From: a virus
Length of the DNA: 35,059 nt
IMG/VR virus record: IMGVR_UViG_3300020138_000005
Coordinates: 1 to 35,059 of that record
Direction: 5' to 3' (one strand)
Both the position numbers and the translations under genes were made by a program. The notes below the pieces were generated by a model. That model searched no databases and had not been told where the DNA came from. It worked only from the letters and a program-made list of their open reading frames with translations. Shown piece by piece: positions 378 to 11,550 of the stretch. Each line of letters begins with the position of its first letter. The first letter of the stretch is position 1.

Positions 378-866
378 ATGAAAACAGCAATATTAAAAAC
401 AAGCTTATGGGATGATGATTCGTTTTATGAGCTGAATATAGATACTAAGTTACTTTATCTATTGTTAGTGTCGGCACCAGAAAGAGGTGTTAGCGACGTG
501 TATAAAGTTTCTGACCGTATATTATCTGTCAGAAGTGGTCTTAATAACAACCAAATAAAAGTATGTAAAGAGCAATTAGTTAACGCTGGTATGGCAGAAT
601 TTGAAGAAAACTATGTTTGGTTAAAAGGTGAAGCTTTTGTGCAACCAAAACGTGGTAGGTTCACTGACGACGCTTTAATGCGTGAAGCACATGAATTACC
701 AGAAAATATCAGGGGTAAGTTTAATAGTAGTTTAATAGTAGAATACTATAACGATACTTTGTATAAAGATAATAATAACGATATAAATAAAGATAATGAT
801 AAAGGGTATAAAAAGTATCTTTCAGCTAGGGAACAACTAAAAAGAAAACTAGCTGTTAATAGTTGA
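378..866 (+). CDS. Hypothetical protein; possible winged-helix or DnaD/replisome-organizer-like DNA-binding protein
   Basis: 162-aa ORF with SD gaggggg 5 nt upstream of the ATG. The N-terminal pattern (LWDDDSFYELNIDTKLLYLLLVS) resembles DnaD-like phage proteins, but the match is weak. Confidence 0.3.
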   Translation: MKTAILKTSLWDDDSFYELNIDTKLLYLLLVSAPERGVSDVYKVSDRILSVRSGLNNNQIKVCKEQLVNAGMAEFEENYVWLKGEAFVQPKRGRFTDDALMREAHELPENIRGKFNSSLIVEYYNDTLYKDNNNDINKDNDKGYKKYLSAREQLKRKLAVNS

Positions 867-1195
867 GCAATATGAAAGCAACGAAATTGCCACCTTATGA
901 CGCTGTAAGACTAAAACACGTTGATTCTGATGGTTCATACAAAGAATATAAGTTATGGAGAAAAAGTCAGGAATATATAATCTGGAGAAACAAACAATGG
1001 AAAAAACAAGACGGTAGATGTGCTTATTGCCGTATGTCTTTGATTGGTAAAAAGACGTGTGTTGAGCATGTATTACCGCAATGGCTAAAAACTAGGAACA
1101 TAAACTCTGGTAAGAATCTAGTGTTAGCTTGTGTGGAATGCAACAAGAAAAAAGGTTCTAAAATATTGAGGAAAAACAGACGACCAAGATTTTAA
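863..1195 (+). CDS. HNH endonuclease, terminase-associated type
   Basis: Motifs CAYC..., VEHVLPQ..., and LACVECNKKKG form an HNH ββα-metal zinc-finger core. The gene sits directly upstream of terS/terL. The start is either TTG 863, which overlaps the upstream TGA, or ATG 872. Confidence 0.85.
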   Translation: MSNMKATKLPPYDAVRLKHVDSDGSYKEYKLWRKSQEYIIWRNKQWKKQDGRCAYCRMSLIGKKTCVEHVLPQWLKTRNINSGKNLVLACVECNKKKGSKILRKNRRPRF

Positions 1196-1231: not shown

Positions 1232-1681
1232 ATGAGTAAGGTGGAAAAGAATAATACAAAACACCCAGGTGGCAGACCACTGAAGTTTAAGACTGTTGAA
1301 GAATTGCAAGCAGCCATTGATGAATATTTTGACTATTGTGATAACCGTATAAAACAAGTTCATTCAAAAGAAGGTGAATCATACGCCGTCGCAAATCCTG
1401 AACCTTATACAATGGCAGGGTTGGCTTACAAGATAGGATTAAGTAGACAAGGGCTTATTGACTATGCAAGTCGTGATGAGTTTATTGACGCTATAAAAGA
1501 CGCTAGGGCAAGAGTCGAGGCTGATGTAGAGCGTAGAATGAATGACAAAGAAACATTCACACCTGGATTGATATTCAACGCAAAGAATAACTTTGGCTGG
1601 AAAGATAAAACCGAGCAAGAGCTTACCCTTACAGAAAAACCTAAACCACTAGAAGACCTCACAAAACCAAAAAAGGGGTAG
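1232..1681 (+). CDS. terS: Terminase small subunit
   Basis: N-terminal GGRPLKF...EELQAAIDEYFDYC is typical of gp3-like small terminases. The gene lies immediately upstream of terL. Confidence 0.75.
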   Translation: MSKVEKNNTKHPGGRPLKFKTVEELQAAIDEYFDYCDNRIKQVHSKEGESYAVANPEPYTMAGLAYKIGLSRQGLIDYASRDEFIDAIKDARARVEADVERRMNDKETFTPGLIFNAKNNFGWKDKTEQELTLTEKPKPLEDLTKPKKG

Positions 1682-1684
1682 ACT

Positions 1685-3742
1685 GTGGCATACGCCATTA
1701 CAACCGCCTACAAAAAACTCAATTCCATGAAACAGAGGGTGCGTATCCTCCAAGGAGGCACTTGCTTCGCTAAAGGCACTCTAGTGCTAATGTCAGACGG
1801 TTCATACAAGCCTATTGATAAGATTGTCGGTGGCGATTATGTATTGAGCAGGGGTGTAAACGGTGGTATAATCAAAACAGAGGTAATAAGGCAGTGGGAA
1901 AACCAGCCTTGTAAACCTATTTTGAATATCTCAATAAACGGCGAGAGGATAAAGGCAACATATGACCACAAGTTTTACACCCCCAGCGGATACAAAGAAC
2001 TATACAAAATTGCCTGGGGAGCAATGGCGGAGAGCCAAAGGCTTCAGCTCAAACTATTATGTGAGCAATATGGGGCGGATATTGACATTAACCCACTACG
2101 GGCACAAGAACTCACCAGCTATAATGAAACCAGCAAAAGCGAAGGACTCGCGCCGACCGAACGACACCAATTACTATCTGAGAGCAGTTATGGACGGCAA
2201 GACAGTAAAACCTCACAGGGTGGTAGCTCAAACTTGGATACCAAACCCGAACAACTACCCGCAGGTGAATCACAAGAACGGCAACAAATCGGACAACCGA
2301 GCAGAGAACTTGGAGTGGTGCAACAATCAGACGAACCAAAAACACGCCTACCTAATGGGGTTACGTCAGCCAATGCAGGGCGAGAAGAACCACAAAGCGA
2401 AGCTAACAGCCGAAGATGTTATGGAGATACGCAGAAGCTGGAATATGGACATGGACAGGCTAACCCGAAAAGGATACGCCCAAAAGTTTGGCGTATCGGA
2501 GCTGACGATAAAGGACGTTTTGGCAAATCGAAGCTGGAAGTGGCTACCGTTGACGATATACGGGTACAAGAATGGGAAGCGGTATATGCGATTGAAACCG
2601 AAACAGGGAACTACTTTGTCAGCCGACAAAATGTAGCCGTATCTAATAGTGCTGGTAAGACAATAGCTATATTATTATGGTTAATAAACTATGCTACTAA
2701 AAATAAGGGCAAACTTATAACAATCGCAGCCGTAAGTTATCCACACCTTAGGCGTGGTGCTATGCGAGACTTTAAGAATATCCTGACCGAGAATAACTAC
2801 TGGGAATACTACCAGATACAACAAAACAAAGCAGAATCTACTTTTACATTCTTTAACGGCACGACAATTGAGTTTGTAGCACTAGACGAAGGAACAGCTA
2901 GAGGGGCAAGGCGTGATGTCTTATTCGTAAATGAGTGCAACCTTATACCTCATGCTACCTATGACCAGCTAGAAGTCCGTACAAGGGAATTAGTTATCTT
3001 AGACTACAACCCGACAACAGAGTTCTGGGTGCATACTGACGTGATACCGACTACCGAGCATGACTTTGACATATTCACCTACAAGGATAATGAAAGCCTT
3101 GAGGATAGTATTGTAAAGTCTATTGAAAGTCGCAAAGGTAATAAAAACTGGTGGAAAGTATACGGACTAGGACAGATTGGTGAGCTAGAGGGATTAGTCT
3201 ATTCAGGCTGGACAGTTACCGATATACCAGAGCAAGCCGAGTTACTAGGTTATGGGTTGGACTTTGGATTCACTAACGACCCTACGGCTATTGTCGCAGT
3301 ATATAAGCACGATGGTAGATATATTTTAGATGAGATTTGTTACAAGACTGGACTATTCAATACAGATATAGCCGATATTATCCGAGCAAACAAATTAGAT
3401 AGAGTTCTAGGTGTAGCAGATAGTGCAGAACCTAAAAGCATTGCCGAACTGGATAGAATGGGCATAACTATCAAGGGAGCTAATAAGCAAGCACCTCAAG
3501 AGAGTAAAGACAGCTATCGGACATGGGCTGTTAATAAGATACAAGAGATGACCGTAAGTTATACGCCAAGAAGCGTAAACCTGCAAAAAGAATACTTGAG
3601 TTATATGTGGGAAACTAATAGATTCGGTAAAACACTGAACGTACCGCAAGACGGCAATGACCACGCCCTAGACGCCTCCAAGTATAAACTGATTGACCTT
3701 ATATCGCCTAAGATTGCCTGGGCTAAACCAAGAGGCTTATAA
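1685..3742 (+). CDS. terL: Terminase large subunit precursor containing a 295-aa intein in the Walker A loop
   Basis: GTG start. The exteins join as ...RILQGGT|SAGKT..., restoring GxxxxGKT. Downstream are an ATPase region (DVLFVNE, Walker B-like) and a nuclease region. A single open frame of 685 codons. Confidence 0.9.
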   Translation: MAYAITTAYKKLNSMKQRVRILQGGTCFAKGTLVLMSDGSYKPIDKIVGGDYVLSRGVNGGIIKTEVIRQWENQPCKPILNISINGERIKATYDHKFYTPSGYKELYKIAWGAMAESQRLQLKLLCEQYGADIDINPLRAQELTSYNETSKSEGLAPTERHQLLSESSYGRQDSKTSQGGSSNLDTKPEQLPAGESQERQQIGQPSRELGVVQQSDEPKTRLPNGVTSANAGREEPQSEANSRRCYGDTQKLEYGHGQANPKRIRPKVWRIGADDKGRFGKSKLEVATVDDIRVQEWEAVYAIETETGNYFVSRQNVAVSNSAGKTIAILLWLINYATKNKGKLITIAAVSYPHLRRGAMRDFKNILTENNYWEYYQIQQNKAESTFTFFNGTTIEFVALDEGTARGARRDVLFVNECNLIPHATYDQLEVRTRELVILDYNPTTEFWVHTDVIPTTEHDFDIFTYKDNESLEDSIVKSIESRKGNKNWWKVYGLGQIGELEGLVYSGWTVTDIPEQAELLGYGLDFGFTNDPTAIVAVYKHDGRYILDEICYKTGLFNTDIADIIRANKLDRVLGVADSAEPKSIAELDRMGITIKGANKQAPQESKDSYRTWAVNKIQEMTVSYTPRSVNLQKEYLSYMWETNRFGKTLNVPQDGNDHALDASKYKLIDLISPKIAWAKPRGL
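1864..1872 (+). promoter_or_regulatory. Internal extended -10 box, tggtataat, about 90 nt upstream of the nested HNH ORF
   Basis: Perfect TGNTATAAT inside the intein N-lobe coding sequence. The same 9-mer precedes the two other free-standing HNH genes. Confidence 0.4.
1962..2636 (+). CDS. NUMOD4/HNH_3-type homing endonuclease, nested in the +1 frame inside the terL intein
   Basis: NUMOD4-like EQWRRAKGFSSNYYVSNMGRI. HNH core HRVVAQTWIPNPNNYPQVNHKNGNKSDNRAENLEWCNNQTNQKHA. C-terminal HTH-like KLTAEDVMEIRR...GVSELTIKDVLANRSW. The stop lies 11 nt before the C-terminal splice junction. Confidence 0.85.
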   Translation: MTTSFTPPADTKNYTKLPGEQWRRAKGFSSNYYVSNMGRILTLTHYGHKNSPAIMKPAKAKDSRRPNDTNYYLRAVMDGKTVKPHRVVAQTWIPNPNNYPQVNHKNGNKSDNRAENLEWCNNQTNQKHAYLMGLRQPMQGEKNHKAKLTAEDVMEIRRSWNMDMDRLTRKGYAQKFGVSELTIKDVLANRSWKWLPLTIYGYKNGKRYMRLKPKQGTTLSADKM

Positions 3743-4111: not shown

Positions 4112-5896
4112 ATGGACATTGATGTTGTCATTGAAGATGCGCAGCCTATCAATGTAACTCTTGGTGATGCGACAAACTACTATAATGGTGGAGCTACTCC
4201 TGAGTGGGGTAATATCACCGGAACACTATCTGACCAAACCGACCTGCAAACAGAATTAAACAATAAGGTGAATACCAGTTCTCTAGCCACCGTAGCGACA
4301 AGCGGTGACTATGGTGACCTTACCAATACACCAACCCTCGGAACCGCAGCAGCAGCCGACACCACAGACTTTGCTACAGCAGCACAAGGCTCTACGGCCG
4401 ACACAGCCCTGCAACCAGGTGATGACATCTCAGACCTCACTAATGACGCTGGGTATATTACCGCAGGAGACATCCCTGCTGATGCAGTTTCTAGCGTAAA
4501 CACACAAACAGGGGCTGTAGTCCTCGACGCTGATGATATTGACGACACCACTACGACCAACAAGTTCGCGACAGCAGCTCAGTTATCCAACGCCGATACC
4601 GCCGTACAACCAGGTGACCTCGCAACTGTCGCCACGACAGGTGATTACGATGACCTCATAAACAAACCAACCATCGCTTCTGAATGGGGCGATATTACTG
4701 GGACACTCTCTGACCAGACAGACCTACAGAATGCTCTTGATGAGAAAGCTGATGCAAGCTCTCTAGCTACTGTTGCGACGACAGGTGACTACGATGACCT
4801 TACGAATACCCCATCTATCCCTAACGAATTGACCGACCTAGACACCACCGTTACAGGCTCACAACTCAATAGCGACCACTCCAAGCTCTCTGGTATCGAA
4901 GCCAACGCTGACGTTACTGACGCTACAAATGTAGCTGCTGCTGGTGCAGTGATGACAAGTGGCGACCAAACGATTAGCGGCGATAAAACTTTTACGGGAA
5001 TTATCCAGGTGCCGACACTGAAAAGTCACGATGGTAATTTCCAAAAAAGAATTAACTTAGATGGTAACAACTTCTCGTACCAGACATATGGCAGCCATAG
5101 GTTCGCTATTTACGATGGTGCAGCGTACGCCGATAAGTTTCATATCACTAGAAACAGCGGCTCAAACTGGGGTGTTGGCATAGGTGTATCGACCCCTACC
5201 GAACGGCTGGATGTTGACGGCAATATTGCAGTCTCAGGCACAGTAGACGGTAGAGATGTATCGACAGACGGGGCTACCTTGGACGCACTTGGCTCAAGTG
5301 TTCGTAAGCGGATTGGCACTGGAACGGGCATGGTATACGGCAACACAGAGCGAGACTATAGGATACTCGGGCAGGCGTATTTAAATAATACCAACACCGC
5401 CACTCCGAGTACGAACCGCTGGTACTTTGAATTTTATGACGTTGTGGAACCAGTTACCGTTGACAGAGTGGCTATCGAGGTTACAGCCGCTGGGGCAGCA
5501 GGGAAATTGGTACGCATGGCACTCTATACAGCCGATACATACATGCAACCGCAGACACTTATTCAGGATTTTGGGACAGTCGCAACCGATGTTGGCTCTG
5601 TACCTACAATGCAGATTGTAACTATAAACCCTACACTCACTTTGCAGCCTGGTAGATATGTGGGGATAATTATACAAGATGGCGGTGCGTCATTCAGAAC
5701 TATCACGGGCTACTCATTGTCTGGCAACTCACTCAACGGTGCTGCTGGGGTGAACCCTTATAGAAATATTGGGTCACTTGGCGGTAGTGGAACCGTAGCA
5801 AATGGCTTCGCGACGGTAAACCCTAGGTGGGAGCGTGACATTTATACTACTGGAGGTGCGGTGAGTTACTTTATGAGGTTTAGGGAGGTAGCATGA
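4112..5896 (+). CDS. Fibre protein with repeated modules
   Basis: LATVAT(S/T)GDY(G/D)DL(T/I)N(T/K)P occurs three times. EWG(N/D)ITGTLSDQTDLQ occurs twice. The ISGDKTFTG motif is present. All are common in phage tail fibres. The C-terminal roughly 250 aa is unique. Confidence 0.7.
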   Translation: MDIDVVIEDAQPINVTLGDATNYYNGGATPEWGNITGTLSDQTDLQTELNNKVNTSSLATVATSGDYGDLTNTPTLGTAAAADTTDFATAAQGSTADTALQPGDDISDLTNDAGYITAGDIPADAVSSVNTQTGAVVLDADDIDDTTTTNKFATAAQLSNADTAVQPGDLATVATTGDYDDLINKPTIASEWGDITGTLSDQTDLQNALDEKADASSLATVATTGDYDDLTNTPSIPNELTDLDTTVTGSQLNSDHSKLSGIEANADVTDATNVAAAGAVMTSGDQTISGDKTFTGIIQVPTLKSHDGNFQKRINLDGNNFSYQTYGSHRFAIYDGAAYADKFHITRNSGSNWGVGIGVSTPTERLDVDGNIAVSGTVDGRDVSTDGATLDALGSSVRKRIGTGTGMVYGNTERDYRILGQAYLNNTNTATPSTNRWYFEFYDVVEPVTVDRVAIEVTAAGAAGKLVRMALYTADTYMQPQTLIQDFGTVATDVGSVPTMQIVTINPTLTLQPGRYVGIIIQDGGASFRTITGYSLSGNSLNGAAGVNPYRNIGSLGGSGTVANGFATVNPRWERDIYTTGGAVSYFMRFREVA

Positions 5897-9600: not shown

Positions 9601-11550
9601 ATGAAGAAGTTCTGGCGTATACAGGATTCTGTCGAATCAGACGGTCAAGAACTCATCCTTGAAGGGGTTGTATCTGCTGAAGAGTGGTGGGGTGATGAAA
9701 TTACTCCGAAAGCTTTCAGGGACGAACTCGCAAAGATTAACGGAAAGCTGACTGTTGTCATTAACAGCGTTGGCGGTGAAGTCTTTGCAGGAGTACAGAT
9801 ATACAACATTCTAAAGGCTCGTGGCAATTCTACTGTACGAGTAGAGGGCATTGCTGGCTCTATCGCTTCCGTCATTGCGATGGCAGGTGAAGAAATAGTA
9901 ATGACACCAGGCTCCGTCATGATGGTACACAAACCGTCTATGGGGGCATGGGGCAATTCTTCTGACATGGAAGATGCGCAGAAAATACTCGAACTGCTCG
10001 AAGATGAACTTATTGAAATCTATGTATCACGAACTGGACTCACCAAAGAGAAAGTCTCTGAACTGTTAGTTGGTGATAACGGAAATGGTACGTGGATGGG
10101 CGGTAAGGAAGCCGTAGGGCTAGGTTTTGCCGATAGAGTGCTAGAGGATGAGGAATTGAAGCTGACTGTGAAAGACGCAATGAAAGCCATGATGAGCAAT
10201 AAATTACAGTTCACCATGCAAGTAAGCAAAGAATCCTTAGAAGCATTTGCGAAAGAAAATCCAAGTGCTGAAACCGATGGAGGTGCAAAGGATGATACCG
10301 ATGTTACCACATCAACTGATGAAACTCCTGACGAGACATCAAACAATACTAATGAGGCAGAGGAATCCGAAGCCGATAAAGAAAAGGAATTAGAAATGGA
10401 CGAAAAAGAGAAGAAAGCTGCTGCCGAAGCTGATGCTCAGGCTCAGGCTGAAGCAGACGCTAAAATGCAGAAGCAAATTGAAACTGCTGTAGAGGGAATT
10501 GTTGCTAAGGCACTACCAAAGCAGCCTAAAGCAGAGAAGAAAGTAAGCGACTTCGCTGTACGTTCTAACTTTGTAAACCAAATTAGCGCACTGATGAACA
10601 AGAACTCAGTTGCACTTAGCCAGTACGTTAAAGAGGGTGCAGAACTCCGTGGCATTGAAAATGCTGTCGCTGATGGTAGTAACCTCTGGGTTGATGAAGT
10701 TGTTCGCAACGACATCCTCAAGGCTTACAACCAAGTTGGTCGTGTAGGTACCCTTGTTGACCGTGAAAGCATTACTGCCGACACTCTGAAAATCTTGGTA
10801 GAAACCGCAGGCGTAGGCTTCCAGCCTGTTGCACTCGGTGCTGCTAAGGGTACTGACGCTCCTACATGGACACCAGTTACATTTGAGCCATATGAATGGG
10901 CTGTTATTGTGCCTTGGAAAGATGGTGACCAGAAGCGCACGACTATCAACATCTATAACCAGATTGTTCAGTACATCGCTACCGAATACGCAAAGCTTGA
11001 GGACAAGATTATCTTGACCTACACTGGCGGTAATGTTGGTTCTGAAACCCGCCCTGCTACTGGTCTTGTTCCTATCTTGACTACTGCTGGTCGTGATATT
11101 CAGGCTACCGATTATAGTTCGGCTGAAGTTATCGGCGCACTTGCTGAGGCTTATGGACAGACTGAATCTGATGGTACTATCACCTTAGTAGCTAACCGTG
11201 TCACATGGGCACAGCTTGCAACTAGCCTTGACGGTATGGACAGGCCACTATTCACCGTTGTTGGTGACCAAGTAAGCGCAGGTGCACTCGGTTCGTTCCG
11301 TGTCGTCATCTCTAGCGTGATGGCAGATGGTGATGTAGTTATCGGTAACTTTGCAGATTACCTGCTGGTTACTCGTGGCGGTCTTGGCACACTGTTCAGC
11401 CGTGAAGCTACAATTAACCTTGGCGGTGAGCAGACTCTTAACCTGTTCCAGCAAGACGCTAGCGCACTCCGTGCTGACGTAGACATTACTGGTGGTGCTA
11501 AGAGAGTCAACTCATTCAGCCTGATTCAGTTCCTAGGTACAAGCTCTTAA
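9601..11550 (+). CDS. Fusion of ClpP-like (S14) prohead protease, an acidic scaffold-like linker, and an HK97-fold major capsid protein
   Basis: The N-terminus has VVINSVGGEVFAG...GIAGSIASVIAMAG...MMVHKP, which is ClpP-like. Residues about 220-300 are an acidic, E/K/A-rich coil. The C-terminal roughly 330 aa is major-capsid-like. Confidence 0.8.
   Translation: MKKFWRIQDSVESDGQELILEGVVSAEEWWGDEITPKAFRDELAKINGKLTVVINSVGGEVFAGVQIYNILKARGNSTVRVEGIAGSIASVIAMAGEEIVMTPGSVMMVHKPSMGAWGNSSDMEDAQKILELLEDELIEIYVSRTGLTKEKVSELLVGDNGNGTWMGGKEAVGLGFADRVLEDEELKLTVKDAMKAMMSNKLQFTMQVSKESLEAFAKENPSAETDGGAKDDTDVTTSTDETPDETSNNTNEAEESEADKEKELEMDEKEKKAAAEADAQAQAEADAKMQKQIETAVEGIVAKALPKQPKAEKKVSDFAVRSNFVNQISALMNKNSVALSQYVKEGAELRGIENAVADGSNLWVDEVVRNDILKAYNQVGRVGTLVDRESITADTLKILVETAGVGFQPVALGAAKGTDAPTWTPVTFEPYEWAVIVPWKDGDQKRTTINIYNQIVQYIATEYAKLEDKIILTYTGGNVGSETRPATGLVPILTTAGRDIQATDYSSAEVIGALAEAYGQTESDGTITLVANRVTWAQLATSLDGMDRPLFTVVGDQVSAGALGSFRVVISSVMADGDVVIGNFADYLLVTRGGLGTLFSREATINLGGEQTLNLFQQDASALRADVDITGGAKRVNSFSLIQFLGTSS

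Follow-up and report, generated by a model that had tools for sequence, protein, structure and literature searches.

The DNA analysed here is a stretch of 35,059 nucleotides from a virus (positions 1 to 35,059 of IMG/VR record IMGVR_UViG_3300020138_000005; hereafter the window), a siphovirus-like phage contig of ~35 kb. Its terL gene, which encodes the large terminase subunit, carries an 885-nt insert within the Walker A codons. We consider it likely that this insert is a bipartite selfish element, in which a splicing Hint domain is combined with an HNH endonuclease encoded out of frame. The out-of-frame layout itself was confirmed: it is real, evolutionarily maintained and widespread, and is neither an assembly error nor the product of chance.

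Insertion in the Walker A codons of terL

The terL precursor was delimited as follows (coordinates of the window; a slash marks a splice junction throughout):

1685..3742 (+): terL precursor open reading frame (ORF), comprising N-extein, intein and C-extein; GTG start, 685 aa; Pfam Terminase_3C, Terminase_6N and Terminase_3, PHROG terminase large subunit, hundreds of homologs
1685..1762 (+): N-extein, ending with the first half of Walker A (…QGGT), from the alignment to the intein-less P0002/L167
1763..2647 (+): predicted intein, 885 nt, 295 codons (terL codons 27-321), Cys1…TYDH…SN, followed by Ser+1
1763..2010 (+): Hint N-terminal part, blocks A and B; wobble in the terL frame up to ~1975, beta-rich AlphaFold2 (AF2) model
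1958..1969 (+): block B, TYDH; its TAT-GAC codons form the +1-frame ATG at 1962
2036..2533 (+): terL-frame "linker", stop-free, unconserved as protein and predicted to be unstructured
2534..2647 (+): C-terminal portion of Hint with blocks F/G, …VYAIETETGNYFVSRQNVAVSN; C-junction alignment, beta strands in the AF2 model (residues 284-320)
2648..3742 (+): C-extein; opens with SAGKT, the other half of Walker A, and continues into the ATPase and nuclease domains
P0002/L167: intein-less terL allele, P-loop region around CAAGGTGGTACT/TCCGCTGGTAAA

The first residue of the insert is a cysteine (C27, nucleotides 1763-1765), which sits within CFAKGTLVLMSDG and is invariant in the aligned precursors (28/28). 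Further blocks in the terL frame are TYDH, VYAIETETGNYFV and SN/S. The four residues of block B (T92, Y93, D94 and H95) are also invariant in the aligned precursors, as are N321 and S322 at the C-terminal end (…VSN/S), and other members of the embedded set described below end in HN/S, HN/T or HN/C. Excision of 1763..2647 yields QGGT/SAGKT and rebuilds the Walker A P-loop; the intein-less ortholog P0002/L167, which is 84% identical, reads QGGTSAGKT at the exact position of the insert. The same intein boundaries (876-888 nt) were found in six relatives, and the terminase Pfam domains all lie downstream of the insert.

In the AF2 model of the terL precursor, obtained with the 28 aligned precursors, the N- and C-terminal parts of Hint are beta-rich and the exteins are well modelled. 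Residues ~140-260 have a predicted local distance difference test (pLDDT) value of ~20 and show no secondary structure, and the terL-frame centre of the intein has no Pfam match. These data uphold a first reading made from the letters of the window alone (hereafter the original prediction): its intein blocks and coordinates were all correct when compared with the sequence and the ORF list, the ortholog confirms the site at which it rebuilt GGT/SAGKT, and the centre of the intein in the terL frame lacks endonuclease motifs, as it had stated. The Hint N-terminal part of the window is weakly similar to the terminase inteins of the Gordonia phage Affeca type (34% identity, E=4e-4). Altogether, the insert appears to be a class-1-type Hint intein, and from its splice residues, the essentiality of terL and the frame kept open we infer that it splices.

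Among the terL homologs in a large protein database, ~90 of the best 120 are ~390 aa long and lack the insert, and 28 further proteins of 661-1017 aa carry it. Its distribution among the relatives of terL is patchy, since it is missing from P0002 and from P0003 (82%) and present in L004 (72%). Sporadic distribution among close relatives is the usual signature of homing elements. A DNA search with terL gave no match among GenBank phages, so no cultured close relative is available.

An HNH endonuclease ORF in the +1 frame

The second reading frame of the insert contains the following features:

1962..2636 (+): ORF of a putative I-HmuI-like homing endonuclease (NUMOD4 + HNH_3 + C-terminal helix-turn-helix, HTH), 224 aa, terL frame +1
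1950..1952 (+): TAA that closes the HNH frame three codons 5' of its ATG (direct reading; extent of the open frame)

Both Pfam domains score above their cut-offs (HNH_3, 31.8 versus 24.8; NUMOD4, 29.1 versus 23.4), and the ORF matches PHROG HNH families (phrog_59 at 2e-40) and proteins with up to 70% identity. A profile of the family matches I-HmuI (1U3E) over positions 17-185 with E=1e-12, and its C-terminal positions 132-185 match the homeodomain HTH (engrailed, 8e-7). The AF2 model of the HNH protein has a mean pLDDT of 84.5, and its sole significant fold match in the PDB is 1u3e (Foldseek E=6e-7, probability 1.0). The catalytic core (H104, N112, N116 and N125) is invariant in 35 sequences and aligns with the DH…N…N core of I-HmuI. 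This confirms, at the level of domains and predicted fold, that the +1 product is an I-HmuI-like NUMOD4+HNH_3+HTH endonuclease and a putative homing enzyme, the domain assignment that had been proposed from the letters.

Homology to other HNH proteins is confined to residues ~17-208. The last ~16-25 codons of the HNH ORF, which overlap blocks F/G, encode a variable tail that is missing in most relatives, and the HNH stop ends 11 nt upstream of the C-terminal splice junction.

Recurrence of the out-of-frame layout

To obtain DNA of the relatives, exact proteins were looked up, and IMG/VR, JGI metagenomes and GTDB genomes were scanned with patterns. In this way 138 distinct HNH-homologous loci were collected, in 44 of which the HNH match lies wholly within a long ORF of another frame (hereafter embedded loci). 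The host ORFs of the embedded loci measure 0.9-3.4 kb and come from independent metagenomes and viral contigs. The HNH is encoded in the +1 frame of the host in 44/44 and in any other frame in 0/44, although the loci are phylogenetically related and these counts do not represent independent events. No host-frame stop was present in any embedded locus (44/44), whereas in 91 non-embedded homologs the density of such stops per 100 codons had a median of ~12.5 and was never below 0.8; the open terL frame of the window is thus shared by its relatives, a comparison that the original prediction had called for.

In all embedded loci the insertion site is the Walker A P-loop, G/C…N/[STC]GK[ST]. The host proteins belong to several unrelated terminase families and to other NTPases, such as a RecF/SbcC-like protein in L094. 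The identities of Hint-N and HNH co-vary (Spearman 0.50, calculated on non-independent pairs), which is consistent with the Hint and HNH parts travelling as one composite unit.

Coding and selection in the two frames

Over the overlap, a stop codon can arise in the terL frame only if an HNH codon ending in T precedes a codon that starts with AA, AG or GA. When the HNH ORF was resampled with synonymous codons according to the codon usage of the window, 21.6 stops were expected and the probability of an open terL frame was 9e-13. Chance had been judged unlikely before, and this value is far stronger than the earlier estimate. In the embedded copies, T was never found at HNH position 3 before AA, AG or GA (0/2594, versus 25.1% in their other contexts), a figure that is partly circular, as the embedded class is defined by the absence of host-frame stops. 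Support that is independent of this definition comes from the bimodality and from the contrast, within the same genes, with the use of T at position 3 in other contexts. In free-standing homologs, T occupies this position equally often in stop-creating and other contexts (34.7% versus 34.5%).

Variation by codon position was analysed in a frame-blind nucleotide alignment of seven diverged elements of the terL subfamily (the window plus six relatives). The most variable position is terL position 3 up to ~1975 and HNH position 3, corresponding to terL position 1, from there to ~2580-2600; terL position 3 then takes over again, a return that begins at ~2560. This switch of the wobble phase was reproduced on 39 loci with protein-guided codon alignments, even when these were aligned via the host-frame translation. 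In pairwise amino acid comparisons, the mean identity of the HNH was 0.44 and that of Hint-N 0.36; the HNH DNA read in the host frame (the linker) reached 0.26. The phase switch and these identities indicate that the HNH evolves as a protein, while the centre of the terL frame is merely kept open. Hence, the HNH protein is under purifying selection. This answers the test for selection in both frames suggested at the outset: selection is purifying in the HNH frame, and the terL-frame centre is open but unconserved.

At 1958..2035 the three codon positions are all nearly invariant among the seven diverged sequences. This segment includes the zone in which both proteins are constrained:

1962..2035 (+): dual-coding zone; terL frame, Hint "YDHKFYTxxGYKELYKIxWG"; +1 frame, HNH "MTTSFxPPxDTKNYTKLxGExW"

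Real two-frame constraint is limited to ~1958..2035. Since the HNH tail is variable and missing in most relatives, its overlap with blocks F/G is incidental. Thus, of the dual coding that had been claimed for both ends of the HNH ORF, that at the N-terminal end stands and that at the C-terminal end does not.

In the +1 geometry, synonymous changes in HNH codons suffice to purge every host-frame stop. The opposite geometry would make a stop unavoidable at the invariant I-M-K-P motif, because ATG-AAR contains TGA. We infer that this codon logic is the rationale for the +1 relation. Recurrence, stop avoidance, the wobble switch and the AF2 models all speak for the earlier proposal of an overprinted endonuclease gene of functional type, with the intein centre tolerated as a linker.

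Expression of the HNH ORF and proposed mechanism

An ATG is present 5' of NUMOD4 in the HNH frame in all embedded copies (44/44); in those copies where the Tyr of block B is encoded by TAC, an alternative ATG lies a few codons upstream. A promoter-like sequence precedes the ATG of the window:

1844..1872 (+): sigma-70-like promoter match, TGGTATAAT box, TTGAGC-17-TATAAT with upstream TG, 10/12 positions, ~90 nt before the HNH ATG

The box noticed in the first reading therefore exists; in the window and its six relatives the -10 is kept in 5/7 and the exact -35 in 3/7. Internal initiation at the block B ATG is the most likely route to the HNH protein.

The bipartite element may be pictured to work as follows. 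Translation in the terL frame would run straight through the insert and give Hint-N (~80 aa), a hydrophilic, unstructured linker of ~170 aa and Hint-C (~38 aa). The two Hint halves would fold together and carry out class-1-type splicing, producing GGT-SAGKT and the active terminase of ~390 aa that the phage needs. The HNH would be made from the internal start at the TAT-GAC ATG, with either the terL mRNA or an RNA made from an internal promoter as its message. By analogy with the homing endonucleases of its family, it may nick or cut the terL gene of co-infecting relatives that lack the intein, close to the P-loop codons, and recombinational repair would then copy intein and endonuclease into the cut alleles. 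Selection keeps both readings, the HNH as a protein and the terL frame as an open frame through the avoidance of T-ending HNH codons.

Several observations weigh against an active element of this kind, in addition to the partial circularity of the codon count and the relatedness of the loci. The penultimate residue of the intein (block G) is Ser in the subfamily of the window (VSN) and not the usual His, which is present in many other embedded members. Inteins without the penultimate His are known to splice, and Ser at this position is not disqualifying. Matches to Hint-family Pfam models occur at both ends of the insert and all fall under the gathering cut-offs (Hom_end_hint, 24.6/32.1 bits; Intein_splicing, 22.7/35.8; Hint, 18.1/29.7; E 3e-5 to 2e-3). 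Separate searches of each frame with profile models, which had been recommended as a check, were thus clear for HNH_3 and NUMOD4 and remained under the cut-offs for the N- and C-terminal Hint blocks. Shine-Dalgarno motifs precede the HNH ATGs no more often than expected from the background (32% versus 36%). Finally, the promoter-like box shows no clear conservation beyond that of the V-L-S and G-G-I-I codons with which it is confounded.

Alternative explanations

The HNH could also be produced by recoding, either through a programmed +1 frameshift that gives an N-extein-Hint-N-HNH fusion or through two shifts that give a conventional in-frame intein. The T-rich and C-rich runs after block B (AAG TTT TAC ACC CCC), the near invariance of 1958-2035 at all positions and the lack of an evident Shine-Dalgarno sequence would fit such a process. 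The conserved runs are, however, accounted for by two-frame protein constraint, and stops in the terL frame could be tolerated if shifting made terL, yet this frame is kept open at a large codon cost. In addition, the ATG is kept in 44/44 copies and is substituted upstream when the block B ATG is lost, a stop closes the +1 frame just 5' of it, and free-standing relatives have their own ATG at the equivalent position. We therefore consider recoding quite unlikely.

Another possibility is that the HNH has been domesticated as a terminase-associated nuclease, retained for DNA packaging and not for homing. HNH proteins are known to assist phage terminases (PMC11855218), and the closest non-embedded relatives of the HNH lie directly 5' of terL and overlap its start. 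But a small classical HNH (863..1195, PF01844) is already present in the window beside terS, the usual place of a packaging HNH, and the nearest terL orthologs have neither the insert nor an upstream HNH. The same element also occurs in P-loop proteins other than terminases, and its fold is that of the homing nickase I-HmuI. A packaging role thus has little chance of explaining the element.

Endonuclease decay is an expected fate in the homing cycle, and the insert might accordingly be the relic of a former in-frame HNH intein with real compensating frameshifts, whose intein splices and whose +1 ORF is untranslated and decaying. The unenriched Shine-Dalgarno motifs would agree with this. The +1 frame, however, shows protein-like purifying selection over 7 and 39 sequences (position 3 most variable, 0.44 versus 0.26), and ORF, ATG and catalytic residues are intact in all 44 copies, whereas a relic would gain stops in its own frame. 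A relic is therefore very unlikely.

The hypothesis that two compensating sequencing or assembly indels displaced an ordinary in-frame HNH intein can draw on the frame switches falling in short stretches (~1975-2035 and ~2535-2580), where single-base indels would fuse the frames, but it deserves practically no credence: recurrence in 44 loci excludes paired indels, since these sequences show the same frame relation at an HNH identity of 35-70% in independent samples and assemblers, no in-frame version exists among the best 120 HNH matches (all of <=368 aa except the broken P0182), and context-specific codon choice that keeps the host frame open cannot arise from error.

Free-standing relatives and direction of transfer

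The bipartite element, which we prefer to these alternatives, has close relatives outside inteins. Stand-alone genes (53-61% identity, ~190 aa) make up the biggest group among the close homologs of the HNH and begin at the equivalent position with their own ATG. Two cases of this group were checked at the DNA level (L169/L170 and L171, of ~30 presumed). In these syntenic phages the HNH gene (L169:3001-3570 and L171:3001-3573) directly precedes a terL that lacks the intein, and it runs over the start codon of that terL. The host-like frame of these two HNH genes contains 5-8 stops. A residual depletion of T-ending codons, as might be left by an escape from an intein, was not significant in them (13/129 versus 34/248, p=0.33, two sequences). 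The P-loop GGMRASKS beside a free-standing HNH was considered as a case of target-site immunity and rejected, as Walker A with Ser in place of Gly (GGTSASKT) occurs commonly in homologs that have no intein.

A neighbour-joining tree, which is rough and carries no support values, was also made; in it the terL-adjacent free-standing group is nested in the embedded clade as sister to the subfamily of the window, and a second, smaller embedded set is interspersed with free-standing copies. The terL-adjacent HNHs are candidates for collaborative homing or for escape from an intein; they may be intein escapees, or the embedded copies may be captured neighbours. Invasion of a mini-intein by an autonomous endonuclease gene, the course of events put forward in the original prediction, is thus one of two possible directions, escape being the other. 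The second embedded lineage, together with a second HNH_3 ORF in locus L253 (described below), hints at independent origins in the same frame. That endonuclease genes move in both directions between free-standing and intein-nested positions, with the +1 geometry as a general rule, is possible but at present doubtful.

Variants and further inteins

Locus L253, the contig of P0039, encodes a terL of 1017 aa with two inteins. The first is of the window type and has a +1 NUMOD4/HNH_3 ORF at 802-1437. The second, in the nuclease domain (…GNDH/C … VSN/C…), contains a +1 ORF of 251 codons (2695-3447) with an HNH_3 match (2.6e-19) and no NUMOD4. Judged by its sequence, this second ORF is apparently an independent out-of-frame HNH with the same frame relation.

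A single-shift variant was observed in L047:1549-3631. The frame of its N-extein, Hint-N and linker ends at 2454, and the HNH frame (ATG at 1799) continues through Hint-C and the C-extein to 3631; this is either a one-base error or a natural split/fused intermediate. L172:406-2506 (P0182) was examined as an in-frame Hint-HNH fusion and rejected, because it is spread over three frames. In this helicase-like host, the N-extein with Hint-N, the linker, and Hint-C with the C-extein occupy three different frames, and the HNH is in frame with Hint-N. The locus represents either a decayed copy or an error-prone contig of 2.5 kb. The intein-bearing terL of L003:3001-4784 was broken up by the gene caller, which reported an HNH gene and a 401-aa "terminase" and left the N-extein and Hint-N uncalled.

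Two embedded copies (L179 and L205) are on GTDB contigs binned to a Candidatus Woesearchaeota archaeon metagenome-assembled genome (MAG) and a Flavobacterium MAG, and the intein-less terL homolog P0071 is labelled Candidatus Saccharibacteria. These labels are contradictory and too weak for naming a host, and may result from the binning of viral contigs.

The terL of the cultured jumbo phage Acinetobacter phage vB_AbaM_ME3 (L254:2042-4324, KU935715.1), annotated "large terminase subunit", contains an intein at the same Walker A site (GRR/C…CHN/TGKT). It was rejected as a further case, as it is an endonuclease-less mini-intein with no alternative-frame ORF. In L005:6172-8061 and L006:3442-5331 the same terL intein is accompanied by a portal/MuF gene of 963 aa with an Intein_splicing match, which by this match is a further intein in the packaging module.

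Genomic context of the window

The order of genes in the window is small HNH (863..1195), terS (1232..1681), terL, portal-MuF, protease-capsid fusion and tape measure. No tRNAs were found within the window. The following ORFs surround terL:

863..1195 (+): classical HNH (PF01844/HNH_5), 110 aa, TTG start, immediately 5' of terS
4112..5896 (+): ORF of 594 aa in which a ~16-residue motif recurs several times (…ATVATSGDYGDLTNTP… / …ATVATTGDYDDLINKP…)
9601..11550 (+): 649-aa ORF with matches to head maturation protease (residues 1-311) and major head protein (193-644)

By its domain matches the packaging module holds two unrelated HNH genes. The ORF at 4112..5896 matches a PHROG tail protein and has an unusual place between terL and the portal gene. 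The two matches of the ORF at 9601..11550 identify it as a predicted protease-capsid fusion.

Comparison with known systems

The original prediction knew of no description of this arrangement, a statement that is now outdated by two preprints (bioRxiv 10.1101/2025.01.02.630785 and 10.64898/2026.09.14.751524). In the first, Gosselin, Arsenault and Gogarten reported actinophage inteins, that of the terminase included, with a homing endonuclease in a separate frame ("frame 3", endonuclease VII-like) or antisense, and proposed free-standing homing endonucleases as the invaders. As in the window, the endonuclease ORF of these cases shares the strand of the intein and is placed between the splicing blocks in another frame, the in-frame centre is structureless, and the large terminase subunit is a host. 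We checked the Affeca terminase intein directly: its Endonuclease_7 ORF is in the +2 frame and its insertion site is outside the Walker A P-loop. The cases of that study are Endonuclease_7, +2 and at a non-P-loop site, whereas the window has NUMOD4+HNH_3+HTH, +1 and the Walker A P-loop. They are also few and from actinophages, and are described without codon-level or wobble-phase evidence for the out-of-frame cases; the family of the window is large, metagenomic and present in many P-loop hosts, and has both kinds of evidence.

In the second preprint, Phillips, DeSimone and Gogarten described an out-of-frame LAGLIDADG homing endonuclease, encoded by a +2 ORF, in a cyanobacterial dnaX intein (bioRxiv 10.64898/2026.09.14.751524). 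Secondary invasion of a mini-intein was proposed, and endonuclease and splicing domain share a history. An overlapping endonuclease ORF, an in-frame region that AlphaFold predicts as disordered, and frame-dependent selection with purifying selection on the endonuclease frame are common to both systems. The dnaX case differs in its LAGLIDADG enzyme, its +2 frame and its cellular host gene, as against HNH_3, +1 and a phage gene in the window, and free-standing sister genes by the target were unreported for it.

ShiLan-type out-of-frame HNHs were reported in insertions without splicing domains in phage DNA methylases (Arsenault et al. 2025, PMC11855218). These also hide an HNH in an alternative frame within an insertion that is stop-free in the host frame, and pose the same question of translation. 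However, a splicing domain was undetected there and the insert is thought to be retained in the protein, whereas the window has complete Hint blocks and the motif is rebuilt on removal. The ShiLan HNH starts with GTG in leaderless-prone Mycobacterium hosts, and that of the window with ATG.

Fractured genes (Dassa et al. 2009, PMC2677866) are interrupted by split inteins with a free-standing homing endonuclease gene between the halves. The free-standing type of the endonuclease gene and its location between the N-terminal half of the intein and the C-terminal one are shared with the window. In fractured genes the host is in two ORFs and splicing occurs in trans; in the window, as in its 44 relatives, a single stop-free ORF (685 codons in the window) is present and splicing in cis is expected. 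Split or decayed forms may be represented by L047 and L172.

In its domain order, fold and catalytic His/Asn core, the HNH of the window matches I-HmuI, the group I intron nickase of Bacillus phage SPO1, and many annotated free-standing phage HNH genes are ~35% identical to it. I-HmuI is encoded in an intron loop and the phage NUMOD4/HNH_3 genes stand alone; unlike the window HNH, none of them overlaps a second coding frame. In collaborative (trans) homing, free-standing endonuclease genes are found beside endonuclease-less splicing elements, as for T4 mobE/I-TevIII (PMC2790892) and F-CphI (PMC6083498). The HNHs of L169 and L171 similarly adjoin a gene able to receive a splicing element, the intein-less terL. 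The known cases involve group I introns, for which frame overlap is undescribed, whereas the family of the window involves an intein with overlap. Hence, out-of-frame endonucleases in inteins were already known; new here are the HNH_3 type, the +1 frame, the P-loop site and the large metagenomic family, and also the wide range of host proteins, the free-standing sisters by an empty target gene and the codon-level evidence.

Significance

It has long been asked how inteins came to carry homing endonucleases, and the order "splicing first, endonuclease invades later" has been put forward. Inteins with out-of-frame endonucleases are a very new finding, made in a small number of actinophages and cyanobacteria, and the family described here adds at least 44 distinct sequences. 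It makes the question more tractable through a two-frame signature that can be quantified, a codon logic for the +1 frame and free-standing sisters located by an empty target gene. Gene callers split or mis-annotate such genes, as in L003, so every frame of a "mini-intein" whose centre is long and of low complexity should be read again. If two-way traffic between free-standing and nested endonucleases does take place, the locus would offer a natural series of the birth of composite inteins and of the shifts of endonucleases between stand-alone and nested life.

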